Positions 10,680 to 56,479 are shown, counted from the first letter of the whole stretch. The stretch: 63,539 nucleotides of DNA, filler included, from Octopus bimaculoides (GCF_001194135.2; 8 parts of 8 records of this genome joined end to end with filler, not necessarily neighbours in it), one strand, 5' to 3'. The notes: generated from the sequence alone by a model not told the origin. A program made the numbers and translations.

Positions 10680-10721
10680 TCTACAGACTAGTTTCGGGGT
10701 ATTGCCCCTTATCAATGTAGA
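10680..10721 (-). ncRNA. Minimal type I hammerhead motif with U3-A8 variant core (HHR-E)
   Basis: Minus strand TCTACA-TTGATAA-GGGG-CAATA-CCCC-GAAA-CTAGT-C-TGTAGA. Stem I 6 bp, stem II 4 bp, palindromic stem III ACTAGT, GUC triplet. Confidence 0.75.
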
Positions 10722-11040
10722 GCAACCGAACCCAGTAATTATCCTTTAAGGTGTATGTCACACGCCAAAGTAGCACCCACTTTAAACATAAAATAATACA
10801 TGTTCATAAAATAAATACCAGGCTGAAATATTATTTTTTTGTCGCAATGTCTTCTATGAAAAATCCTTTGAAAGTGGTGAGTTGGTTTGGCTGTAGTTCA
10901 GTGACTGAATCTTGTGTGTAATAAAAAATTAAATAGTAATTTATTGTTCTGAATTGCAGTTAGAGGTTCTCAACTGGGGTCTGTACAAGATTTTGTTGTT
11001 AAAATTTATATGCTTATAGTTCTACAGTGTACAAAATATT

Positions 11041-11140
11041 NNNNNNNNNNNNNNNNNNNNNNNNNNNNNNNNNNNNNNNNNNNNTTAATTAATTAANNNN
11101 NNNNNNNNNNNNNNNNNNNNNNNNNNNNNNNNNNNNNNNN
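11041..11140. other. Assembly spacer: 44 N + TTAATTAATTAA + 44 N (six-frame stop tag)
   Basis: Identical 100-bp constructs at 11041, 14861, 37491, 51211, 56808, 59963 and 61821. Artificial, not biological. Confidence 0.95.
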
Positions 11141-12486
11141 TATCTATCTATCTATCTATCTATCTATCTATCTATCTATCTATCTATCTATTTATCTATC
11201 ATATATATATATATATATATATATATATATATATATGTATATGTATAAAGATAACATTATCTATCTATCTATCTATCTATCTATCTGTTTGCGTATTTAT
11301 CTATCTATGTATCTTTCCATGTACATATTCATATATGCTTATAAGTATATAAGTATATAAACAATGTAAATATGCATACATATAAATATATATGTGTGTA
11401 TACACACATACATACACGCATATATATATTTGTGCGTGTGTATCTTTACATACAAATATGCTTGTGTATATTATGTTTTAGTATGAGTATATATGTTCAT
11501 GTATATATGTATATGTATCTGTGTATATATATGTATATATATATATATATATGTGTGTGTGTGTGTGTGTGTGTGTGTGTGTGTGTGTATGTATATATCT
11601 ATGTGTGTATATATAAATATACCCACGATCTTTTATACAATATATTCTACACAAAGCTTCATAGTCATGATACCATTAATATATATNNNNNNNNNNNNNN
11701 NNNNNNNNNNNNNNNNNNNNNNNNNNNNNNNNNNNNNNNNNNNNNNNNNNNNNNNNNNNNNNNNNNNNNNNNNNNNNNNNNNNNNNNNNNNNNNNNNNNN
11801 NNNNNNNNNNNNNNNNNNNNNNNNNNNNNNNNNNNNNNNNNNNNNNNNNNNNNNNNNNNNNNNNNNNNNNNNNNNNNNNNNNNNNNNNNNNNNNNNNNNN
11901 NNNNNNNNNNNNNNNNNNNNNNNNNNNNNNNNNNNNNNNNNNNNNNNNNNNNNNNNNNATATATATATATATTTATAAAAGTTTTTACATTTATATATAT
12001 ATATATATATATATATATATATATATACTTAACTCTAAATATTTTTCTCATATTTTTCTCTGAAGGACTGCTGCGATAAGTATGAGAATCTGTGAGGAGA
12101 ATATGTTGAATAAAATCATAATTAACTTACCTTCCTATTTTTTCTAGTACTCAAAGCCAGGAACTGTTCAACACCCTTCGTATATACATAAATGTAGATA
12201 TTAAAACACACATACCAAATTATGTTGTGATGTGAAATGACAAGTGAGTAAGGACTCTTGGTCGTACATCTTGGTGTACATCTGGTACGCCGTCACGCTG
12301 TCACGCCTCTATTTTTGCTACCACACTCAAGATCTTTATACTGTGGCGTATACATTAAACAGATGAAAATAGAAACACACACACACACACACACACACAC
12401 ACACACACACACACACACATATATATATATATANNNNNNNNNNACACACACACACACACATATATATATATATATATATATATATA

Positions 12487-14290
12487 CTACCTATCGCCCA
12501 CCAGATGCTCCATATTATGCGGACTCGTTAGAACAGACTCTCAAAAATATAGATGACGTGTTGACCAATTTTGCTGACAAACTTCACACACTTCTTTGAA
12601 GAAACTTCCATCTCCCTCGTCGAATGGCCTGAGGGCCGCCTTCTATCAGTTATGCCACTGCATGAATAAAGGCAAGCAGGATCTCTGCTCGACCTCACAA
12701 ACATGCTTTTTACGGTGTAAATAGTGCTCCACCGAACAAAGGGTAAAAATATCCTGGACCTCTGCTTCACAAATAACATGGCGCTCATCCATAATGTTAA
12801 GGTGACACCAACGATTCTCTCGGACGATAACTTTATAGAACTAACAGTGTGTGGTCCACAGAAAAAATGCAGATATGCAGACTCCTAGAAGCACCCAATT
12901 CCTCTCCAGCCTCAACTTTGATAAAGCTGATTGGAAGGGTATTGAGAAAGGGATCATGAAACAAAACTGGACTATCAGTACCTGTACGCAAGATACTGAC
13001 ATAAAGCTACAGCTCTTTATGACAATCATGCATGACATATACACAAAATTTGCTCCTGAGAGAATGCCAAACCAGCAGAAAAATATAATTCTCAGAGATA
13101 GAAGGATTCTAATGTGACGACGAGCAAATATTTAAAACCGTCTAAATGGGCCACTTAAAGATAGTGAACGATCGTATCTCAGACAAACATTGCTCGAGAT
13201 TGAAAATGAGCTCAAATATTCCCATGAAAAGTAGAGGGTAGAGAAAGAAACCAGGTTGTCAAAAATATAATGACAAACTCTAAAAGCATCTATAGATTTG
13301 CATTGAGTCTGCTTCAGTACGGTACAAGATAGGGTCACTGTTTCGAAGAAAATGGCTCATCGACAGCAGACACTCCAAAGATAAGTGAAACACTGGATGT
13401 GCAGAATGTTTTCACATCTCCGTCGGGACACTTGCAAATAGCTACACATGATGAGTTCTTCGGCATCACAACTCTACACAGAGATGTCAATTATTGATAA
13501 TACAGCAATAAAGGAAACTGATGTAATATCAGGCATTGATGCAATGAGCACAAAATCAGCCACAGGCCCTGATGGATCCTCAGCAATCCTCTTAAAGAAA
13601 TGGAAAAGTGCTTCCTCGCAAATGAGAGATCTCCCAATAGTTAAAGAAAGGCATTATATATTCTATCCATATAGGAAGTAGCTGGATGGATGCAAAAAAT
13701 TAATGTCAGCAAAGTTATGGAATGCGTTGTCATGAAGAAGCTGATCTCGTTTTTGGAGGATAATGATTTGTTCCCTGACCCCCATCATGGTTTCCGTTCG
13801 GGAAGAAGCTGCTTTACATACCTTTTGCAGTATTAATACTGGGTGTTGAAACAACTAATGAATCGTTCAAACATGAATGTGATATATCTTGACTTTGCAA
13901 AGGCCTTTTGGTAAGATCGATTATGGGATGATATGTTACAAGCTACGGGTCACGGCATAGTCGTAAAACTGGGAGAGTGGTTACATAACTTCTTAAAAGG
14001 CAGAAGTCAGGCAGTGGCAGCTATCGTAACCCTCTCAAAGGAGACAGCAGCAGGGAACTGTCTTGGGGCCGATAATGTTGATGGTAGTTCTTTCAGACCT
14101 GTCCTCGGTTACTAGCTATGCCGACGACATAAAAGTAGTACAGGCAGCCAAGGAACCATCTGATGCTAATCCTCTACCGAAAGATGTAGATGCTATATAT
14201 AAATGCTCAAAAGATACACTAGACTCCGATTTCTTTACAGGAGATCAATTCCACGGAGGAAACAATAGCTATTAGAGGGATCAAATTGAG
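12487..14290 (+). mobile_element. Decayed CR1/L2-group LINE ORF2 fragment (APE endonuclease + RT)
   Basis: YRPP (12492), RTKGKNILDLCFTNN, KSATGPDG, IYLDFAKAF (13888), GEWLHNFLKGRSQ, SYADD (14117). Multiple frameshifts. Confidence 0.85.
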
Positions 14291-54600: not shown

Positions 54601-55539
54601 AGACAGAGGGATCACACAGGAGAGCATATATATATTTGACGGGCGACTTTGAATGTCCGTCTTCTAAATCCACTCATAAGTCTTTGAAAGGAAAACATTT
54701 GTGCAAGTTTCCACGCGGTGGGACCGAACCCAGAACCATGTGGATGGGAAGCAAGCTTCTAGCCACACCGCAATGCTTGAGCCTTATACCTTGAAGTATA
54801 ATATTTGATACGATTCCTAGATTTTGTTTATTGGGCTAAGTCTTATCGTCATTATGTTTGCTTATTGTTTACATTGCGTGATATTTTGGATTTGTCTGTA
54901 TATATTTTGATGATTTTATTTTGTGGTGTTTATAATTGTGACTGTGGTGTTGTGGAAGTCTGTAAGCGTTGAGTCTGTTTGTGCTACTGATGTGGTTCCT
55001 ATTACGACCAGCATCCCGTGACGCAGTTTATTCAGAGAGAGACTCTCTCTAACAAAACAGAGGACAAACTATTGAAATATACATCCGGTTCGGGAAAGTC
55101 AAGTGAATTCAGTTAATTTATGAGATTCGAGGAAATAGATATATGAATACTGATATTGAAATACGTGGACATAAAATGAGAGAGAGAGAAAGAGAGGGAG
55201 AGAGAGCAAGAGAGAGATAGAGAGAGAGAGAGCAAGAGAGAGAGAGAGAGAGAGAGAGAGAGAGAGAGANNNNNNNNNNNNNNNNNNNNNNNNNNNNNNN
55301 NNNNNNNNNNNNNNNNNNNNNNNNNNNNNNNNNNNNNNNNNNNNNNNNNNNNNNNNNNNNNNNNNNNNNNNNNNNNNNNNNNCAAAAGAGAGAGAGAGAG
55401 CAAAAGAGAGAGAGAGAGCAAAAGAGAGAGAGAGAGCAAAAGAGAGAGAGAGAGCAAAAGAGAGAGAGAGAGCGAGGGATAGACAAAAAGAGTTATCTAT
55501 CTATCTATTTATCTATCTATCTGTTTATCTATCTATCTA

Positions 55540-55985
55540 TAGGATACGATGGGTAAATTGTCGCCATTTTAGATCTTTAATTTCGCGCATTGCTTGCGCA
55601 TTGTTTGTTTTTGATTTTGTCGACTATACAATATAGTAGGCTCAGTTGGGACCCTTCGTGACAAAAGCAGCACCATGATGCAATTCACTCTATCAGAAAT
55701 TTGGAAAACGACATACTGTACTGCCTGGCATTCGCGCCCGAAGCTCCAATACGAACAGAGAGAACAACCGTTGGCTTGCTGTGAACACAGAGAACAACCG
55801 TTGGCTTCCTGTGTCCCCAAAACATGTACCGAGAGAGAGAATAATCAAACATCGAGTCAACATCACGGTGTTTGGAGTGATCACTAGTGATAACGATGTT
55901 ATGCCTCCGTTCATCTTCCCACACGGTACACAGGTTCGAAATTTCCCCAAGATACCTGATGAATGCTGGAGGGTATATTAGCCGA
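55540..55985 (+). mobile_element. Tc1/mariner-superfamily transposase remnant (maT/DD37D-like), internally deleted
   Basis: KHRVNITVFGVITSDNDVMPPFIFPHG resembles the H-P-x-x-x-MV-x-G..PP-x-F segment of mariner-like DDD transposases. A 30-bp internal tandem duplication lies at 55753-55812. Confidence 0.65.
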
Positions 55986-56235
55986 ATCATTGTGTTAACA
56001 ACAAACAAGATGGGGACAAATATCCGTCAAATGTAAATGATGTAAATAATGTAGAAAAACTATTAGGTTTAAATTTCTGAGCGAGAAATATGCAGCAAAA
56101 GTACTCTAGAGTAAAGTTTATTTGCCAACGTAAAATGGCAGTTCTGATTAAGAGGAATGTTACTGCTATTTAGCCCCAGGAAAGCATCGTCTTAATATTT
56201 TCGAACAAGGAAGGTAGTGTCCTCACTCAGCTCAA

Positions 56236-56479
56236 AGCAATATCTATGTACCAATGATTTTTGGGTTATTTCCCTTCACCAGCACAGAATAATCACTTGG
56301 CATATTTCTCGTTCACAGATTTAGAACAAATAGTTTTCTGTTTAGGAAATCAGTGACTGTGTTTCATTTTGAAAAGTATATACTTCGAATAAGAACTAGT
56401 GTCACCATCTCTAGCCAAGCGATTATTCTGTGCTGATGAAGAGAAATAACCCAGAAATCATTGGTACACAGATATTGCT
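56236..56479. repeat. Inverted repeat, 65-bp arms (56236-56300 / 56415-56479), 114-bp spacer
   Basis: The arms differ at about 5 positions, all transitions. Each arm contains the HHR-B motif. Confidence 0.9.
56427..56472 (+). ncRNA. Type I hammerhead motif (HHR-B), right arm of an inverted repeat
   Basis: TCTGTG-CTGATGA-AGAGAAATAACCCA-GAAA-TCATTGGT-A-CACAGA. Stem I is 6 perfect bp, the core is canonical, the triplet is GUA, and stem II is weak. A decayed inverted copy lies at 56243-56288 (-). Confidence 0.6.

Follow-up and report, generated by a model that had tools for sequence, protein, structure and literature searches.

Why should one intron of an octopus neogenin gene hold five different hammerhead ribozyme motifs, and do they do anything for the gene that harbors them? 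The motifs lie in a stretch of Octopus bimaculoides DNA (GCF_001194135.2; here the window, 63,539 nucleotides including the filler between its joined parts), where a sequence-only reading had placed them at 10680-10721(-), 17910-17954(-), 19684-19719(+), 48380-48454(+) and 56427-56472(+), called m1, m2, m3a, m4 and m5a below. All five were found at these coordinates, as were two more m3 copies, at 20260-20295(-) and 54495-54530(-), and an inverted m5 arm at 56243-56288(-). They are very probably the hammerhead parts of five unrelated short non-coding repeats, likely placed independently by Penelope-type reverse transcriptases, and most copies here are likely passengers that have decayed, not regulators of neogenin. 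Four of the families fit kinds of hammerhead that are already known, and m3 is a core variant of one such kind: it has been amplified with U at core position 6 while keeping hammerhead-type variation.

The motifs are real, and their number exceeds chance. The descriptor used required CUGANGA or UUGANAA, helix II, GAAA, a helix III that was either paired or very short, UH and helix I, and the controls were dinucleotide shuffles of positions 1-58200 in 500-bp blocks (n = 500). With the loose form of the descriptor, only m1, m2 and m4 pass (three observed against a shuffle mean of 0.08, with none of the 500 shuffles reaching three), and with the strict form m1 is the sole match (2 of 500 shuffles reach one). 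When position 6 was left free, there were four matches with at most two defects against a shuffle mean of 0.12, and none of 300 shuffles reached four; one of the four, at 4404(+), is unconvincing. The motif count is thus far above that of shuffled DNA. The claim in the sequence-only reading that every motif is built on the hammerhead pattern holds for part of the set. The core (CUGANGA or the U3-A8 version), GAAA and NUH, in order and closed by helix I, are found in m1, m2 and m4, and m5a has the core letters; however, the m3 copies lack A6, m5a lacks helix II, and its inverted partner m5b carries A6G and G12A. Helix II is formed in m1, m2, m4 and the majority m3 sequence, unformed in m5a and 3 bp long in m5b. 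That the flanks are unrelated between families was borne out by zero cross-family BLAST matches and by 13 of 14 cross-family local alignments at shuffle level, the exception being m3a with m4 (1 of 200 shuffles as good). In metagenome contigs, searches for exact matches to the m3 and m1 motifs came up empty.

The motifs also lie, as had been proposed, inside one intron of a DCC/neogenin-type gene. A profile search of the open reading frames (ORFs) of the window gave a Neogenin_C Pfam match in the ORF at 58114-58467 (E 1.4e-15), and the peptide that this exon encodes matches neogenin-like proteins of Octopus vulgaris and O. sinensis at 100% identity in 7 of 17 cases. Two neogenin exons, both on the plus strand, were placed by tblastn with 8 of 17 proteins, among the matches listed: 58198-58440(+), set as an exon at 58201-58440, which begins the cytoplasmic domain and marks the 3' end of the host intron, and the following exon, 59298-59408(+). 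Since only these two exons map and the preceding transmembrane exon is outside the window, positions 1-58200 are taken to be a single intron of more than 58 kb, with the proviso that the window has 33 N gaps, which might conceal an exon. Between the two exons, at 58607-59014, a short unit occurs three times in tandem almost without change, read as a repeated peptide.

The two antisense families with a single copy in the window differ in kind. By the strict descriptor and its dimer fold, m1 (10680-10721, -) is a canonical-type type I hammerhead with a U3-A8 core, no extra nucleotide, a palindromic helix III (ACUAGU) and a GUC cleavage triplet, and the predicted cut lies 3' of C10686. In the predicted fold, its 6-bp helix I with a distal helix I and its helix II of four G-C pairs give the full canonical retrozyme helix layout. 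It co-folds in silico as a double hammerhead with a 6-bp intermolecular helix III. On the other hand, m2 (17910-17954, -; descriptor and fold) is a minimal, Penelope-type hammerhead, with an intact core, an extra G after A9, a 6-bp helix II including G10.1-C11.1, a bulged helix I and a helix III that is one change short of a palindrome. By direct reading, it sits in an element of about 225 bp (17794-18017, -) with (TA)n on both sides. Neither has an internal inverted segment (122 of 200 shuffles as good for m1 and 197 of 200 for m2), and no Penelope-type insertion footprint, meaning an inverted 5' copy and a microsatellite target, was seen at m1.

The m5 family is present as a head-to-head insertion (56056-56479, no strand assigned). 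Its sense copy, m5a (56427-56472, +), has an intact core and a 6-bp helix I with a distal helix, but helix II is broken (predicted pair probability at most 0.01 in this copy), so that the canonical retrozyme layout is present in helix I only. The inverted copy, m5b (56243-56288, -), has, besides its two core changes, a helix II of three G-C pairs. The inverted arms, 56236-56304 and 56411-56479 (69 bp), cover the ribozyme and the distal helix I. The minus copy also leads into 38 bp that match the beginning of the plus copy (56056-56093 versus 56300-56337; none of 2000 shuffles reaches the score); this implies that the unit is permuted and about 325 nt long. A search of RNA runs with 55900-56800 listed none carrying this region, which is evidence in neither direction.

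Two of the families, m3 and m4, were compared with public DNA and RNA reads at 80% likeness, and both are dispersed, multi-copy families with hammerhead-type variation. The only intact sense copy is m4 (48380-48454, +; descriptor and fold): the core is intact, helix I is 7 bp long, helix III is palindromic (ACCAUGGU), and the long helix II, a 42-nt domain, is closed by G.U. The predicted cut of m4 lies 3' of C48447. It co-folds in silico as a double hammerhead with an 8-bp intermolecular helix III. Repeat depth begins at about 48312 and extends beyond 48570 (element 48312-48570, +): in the DNA set X1, the unique flank has a depth of 42.9, against 4,200-17,600 from about 48312 across the ribozyme, and 1,098 and 1,158 DNA contigs align in two organisms. 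Since depth does not equal copy number, this abundance is read only as "hundreds". The variants listed include changes at N7, in helix II and at H17, where C is replaced by A or U but never by G, and the fixed core positions are unvaried among the best 40 of 66 variant rows. Upstream of m4 is a 50-nt hairpin (48321-48370), present in many copies (depth about 4,200-4,800), which could represent either an inverted 5' end that became fixed or a structural domain. The sequence just 3' of m4, 48454-48504, is shared with a far commoner repeat (X1 depth up to 921,840, compared with 17,600 over the ribozyme), and loose ends there suggest related hammerhead subfamilies.

What sets m3 apart is its core. 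The sense copy, m3a (19684-19719, +), has C at position 6; its helix I starts from a C.A mismatch at the base, its helix III is not palindromic, and its element of about 190 bp (19615-19808, +) ends 3' against (TA)n. Of the two minus-strand copies, m3b (20260-20295, -; element about 20170-20374) has A6U, a helix II in which U-A replaces C-G, and a helix III with the palindrome ACGU, and m3c (54495-54530, -; element about 54410-54595) has A6U together with G12C and a helix II mismatch. Position 6 thus reads C, U and U, with A6 in none of the three, and all three share one 3' endpoint, each against (TA)n. For m3a, a register starting from CUGAAGA at 19691 was set aside, since it breaks helix II and only the register from 19688 puts the variable base at N7.

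The reads extend this picture to the family as a whole. Over 136 bp, 7,909 and 8,702 DNA contigs align to m3, and DNA depth, at up to 2.2 and 3.2 million, exceeds that of single copy by four orders; a very abundant family is consistent with finding three copies in 58 kb. At core position 6 (19691), U makes up 90% and 89% of the DNA depth and 85% and 89% of the RNA reads, and A is below the 10% listing limit in all four runs. The majority sequence lacks two of the defects of m3a: 19687 is U (99% and 98%), which restores helix I, and 19713 is G (74% and 75%), which restores the ACGU palindrome. It also has the extra nucleotide after A9, G10.1-C11.1 and the palindromic, very short helix III. Between 19688 and 19715, more than one alternative letter is seen only at 19692 (N7) and 19715 (H17), among the rows listed (the best 40 of 41). 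N7 takes U, G, C and A (G 12%, C 10% and A 3% in X1), and H17 takes A, U and C (U 26% and C 10% in X1; G not listed). The remaining DNA changes listed in this interval are transitions of at most 8%, mostly at CpG. By hand arithmetic, two multi-letter sites would land exactly on N7 and H17 with a chance of 1 in 378; counting any of the seven free positions raises this to about 1 in 18. Since multi-letter variation is confined to N7 and H17, the family keeps the hammerhead rules around its U6 core. The sequence-only reading had counted m3 among the hammerheads and had left the family-wide U6 unremarked; as it departs from the A6 of type I hammerheads, m3 is classed here as a hammerhead-like variant rather than as a member.

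How did these sequences get into the intron? We infer a Penelope-driven origin, dimer cleavage in the parent elements and a retrozyme-like unit for m5. In the parent elements, to judge from the literature, the ribozyme would cut a multimeric precursor RNA, likely as a dimer through its palindromic helix III, and cleavage of the multimers would yield unit-length or circular templates. On their architecture, m2, m3 and m4 resemble the 3' stumps of Penelope pseudo-LTRs (pLTRs; LTR, long terminal repeat) or of non-autonomous derivatives, whereas m1 and m5 resemble the canonical ribozymes of non-LTR retrozymes, m5 possibly in its permuted unit. The claim that all the motifs are minimal is accordingly not right, and the minimal type fits m2, m3 and, more loosely, m4. 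Penelope-like insertions have inverted 5' copies and a bias toward microsatellites (PMC8557442), and such a footprint is seen in the head-to-head arrangement of m5 and in the (TA)n at the 3' ends of m2 and all three m3 copies. In O. vulgaris, 31 Penelope-like families were recently active, in an annotation whose main text does not deal with ribozymes (PMC13282606), and retrozymes, with units of about 300 nt, have been proposed to move by means of Penelope enzymes (PMC7229834, PMC7761336, 10.64898/2026.07.22.740005).

A number of results weigh against this account. No Penelope reverse transcriptase or GIY-YIG match was obtained in 140 of the 322 candidate ORFs of the window (139 of the 148 longest and one added, with 24300-37300 left out), and since no Penelope ORF was found there, the helper is only inferred. 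Multi-copy status covers m3 and m4 out of the five families, and no family forms a head-to-tail tandem in the window. An Rfam scan of the whole window gave no hammerhead among the matches listed (150 of 200), nor did local scans of m4 and m1. The ends of RNA reads do not pile up at the predicted m3 and m4 cut sites, which in fragmented cDNA is a weak test. Finally, the m5 unit of about 325 nt rests on a single 38-bp match, and neither m5 arm runs on into the sequence that the other predicts. The diverse retroelement population envisaged by the sequence-only reading is therefore supported by the abundance of m3 and m4 and by an architecture matching that in PMC4209133, but not by Penelope ORFs in the window, and the dimer action that it ascribed to such motifs is supported in silico only, by the double folds of m1 and m4.

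Could the motifs be something else altogether? Chance matches in AT-rich, repeat-rich DNA would be scarcely credible. The descriptors were, to be sure, composed after the motifs had been seen, and the loosest versions also admit 4404(+), a weak U3-A8 hammerhead-like match with a 3-bp helix I that is itself regarded as chance; but the observed counts were never reached in the shuffles, and variation across the m3 and m4 families obeys hammerhead rules. For m5, a miniature DNA transposon with the inverted arms as its terminal repeats, and with an incidental or captured hammerhead shape, is improbable. The 69-bp arms would suit it, as would the fragments on either side, 55688-56026(-) and 56685-56807(+), which by their motifs resemble a Tc1-type transposase and which have no Pfam match. 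However, the shared arm coincides with the ribozyme, distal helix I included, and the second, offset inverted match at 56056-56093 better suits a permuted RNA unit. A third possibility is that one or more sense copies were recruited to cleave neogenin pre-mRNA as it is made and so tune its output; the sequence-only reading had suggested such cutting, and it is not supported. Three of the eight hammerhead copies are sense to neogenin (m3a, m4 and m5a), but two of the three intact copies, m1 and m2, are antisense. On the predicted folds, cutting by the sense copies is unlikely. The whole of m5a is predicted to pair with its inverted arm (1.0 for the arm pairs, 0.0 for helix I), while 164 of the 191 positions of m3a would be taken up by m3b, and a cut by either is unlikely since both are mutated and sequestered by their inverted neighbors. 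In practice this leaves m4, with its intact core and with helices I and II predicted to form in context (0.4-0.88 and 0.79-0.99), and an intronic ribozyme is able to affect its host gene, as with Cpeb3. Yet helix III of m4 stands at 0.0 in the monomer; m4 likely needs a dimer partner, the window holds no second copy, and self-cutting is unlikely. Furthermore, single minimal motifs gave no cleavage in vitro and dimers were weak (PMC4209133), an intron is still spliced out when a slow hammerhead cuts it (PMC2995048, citing Dye 2006 and Fong 2009), and m4 belongs to a multi-copy family. Co-option is thus very improbable. The picture is also not that of a domesticated intronic ribozyme, since m3 and m4 are multi-copy and the motifs have either an unformed monomer helix III or are sequestered. 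RNA reads aligned to m3 (1,488 and 1,077, with 6 and 1 at least 99% identical) and to m4 (102 and 74, with 1 and 0) occur in both mate directions and are uninformative about this locus, nearly all being from other copies. The convergent m3a/m3b pair (19610-20379; 74% identical, about 380 nt apart) is likely, as a predicted long pre-mRNA duplex, to be a substrate for adenosine-to-inosine (A-to-I) editing.

Does the U6 core of m3 still cleave? Judged from its sequence, m3 is probably a slow variant ribozyme. A bolder reading is that this repeat, among the most abundant short ones of the octopus genome, carries a working natural U6 hammerhead, a tuned-down dimer ribozyme missed by standard descriptors and Rfam, with N7 and the cleavage base held under selection throughout a very large expansion; animal genomes would then conceal a large class of ribozymes with variant cores. 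This reading is tentative, and we hold it with more doubt than belief. Alternatively, m3 could be a catalytically dead relic, a passenger like a short interspersed element (SINE), spread by its 3' end alone and with a shape inherited from an A6 ancestor; this is a serious possibility, though not one that we would adopt outright. All 56 representative motifs in Fig. S3 of PMC4209133 have A6, although the descriptor there demanded it; the natural A6C hammerhead cleaves at less than 0.1 per min (PMC3088659); helix I of m3 is just 4 bp; all three window copies have further defects; and Naiads multiply without canonical hammerheads. Against a dead relic stands the restriction of multi-letter variation to N7 and H17, and the H17 transversions in X1 to C and U, with G below the limit, suggest selection for NUH among U6 lineages. 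However, the variant tables are unphased and cannot prove that these variants postdate the change to U6, and a likeness of 80% would miss a more distant A6 parent. By title and abstract, no published A6U hammerhead (CUGUNGA, CUGUUGA) was found, although two key papers might list one.

The closest known systems are the Penelope pLTR minimal hammerheads (Cervera and De la Pena 2014, PMC4209133), which have an extra nucleotide after A9, G10.1-C11.1, a tiny palindromic helix III and a U3-A8 variant, set there beside canonical metazoan hammerheads with a 6-bp helix I, a 4-bp helix II and loop contacts. Like them, m2, m3 and m4 have a U-rich lead and a short helix I; the extra nucleotide and G10.1-C11.1 are found in m2 and m3, and the palindromic tiny helix III in the m3 majority and, as its only one of these three traits, in m4. 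The U3-A8 core of m1 is also reported there, as are many unrelated families per genome, mostly solitary, with some opposite-strand pairs 100-700 bp apart. On the other hand, the 40 species listed there do not include an octopus, the U6 of m3 is absent from the 56 motifs, and differences are also seen in the helix II domain of m4 and in the lack of a linked ORF in the window. With non-LTR retrozymes (Cervera and de la Pena 2020, PMC7229834; Li, Clavereau and Pollet 2026, 10.64898/2026.07.22.740005), m1 and m5 share a canonical type I ribozyme in a short non-coding sequence, and the m5 unit compares with 350-390 bp in mussel and 331/353 nt in axolotl. Among retrozymes, too, monomers are often solitary and many copies lie in introns (about 43% of the copies in Xenopus; 10.64898/2026.07.22.740005). 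In contrast to retrozymes, with their head-to-tail monomers of about 150-400 nt, the window has no tandem array, and the m5 copies are decayed. A substitution at position 6 in an otherwise complete motif is also found in phage Bcep176 (A6C; Perreault et al. 2011, PMC3088659), but that is a single phage sequence of low measured activity, whereas U6 is the majority state of a very abundant animal repeat family. For cephalopod hammerheads, the literature searches made here brought up only a Naiad paper and a tally of 235 Rfam matches in giant squid. A diminished palindromic helix III and predicted dimer action are features that the present motifs share with the small variants of Lunse, Weinberg and Breaker. 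Those variants, near Penelope-like elements, reportedly cleave as dimers.

Hammerheads of Penelope-type and retrozyme repeats are already known across animals, and five families in a 58-kb octopus intron mainly widen their range. The consequences of m3 could be larger. If A6U cleaves, a very large natural family would do without a core base that is supposedly fixed, and counts of animal ribozymes made with descriptors would come out too low. If it does not, such repeats would amplify without cutting, which bears on the purpose of the Penelope hammerheads.

Other repeats were also noted in the window. A degenerate tetranucleotide satellite with internal inversions extends over about 13 kb (24300-37300), and the microRNA matches in the Rfam scan are microsatellite artefacts. 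Broken remnants of non-LTR retrotransposons, presumably R4/Dong-like and CR1/L2-like by their motifs, lie at 51902-53738 and 46960-47150, at 38860-39600 and at 12250-13130, with weak Pfam matches to RVT_1 (E 0.0069) and zf-RVT (E 0.0081). Finally, two segments of an abundant SINE-like repeat, 10402-10488 and 19551-19592, have 12 and 14 further matches in the window.

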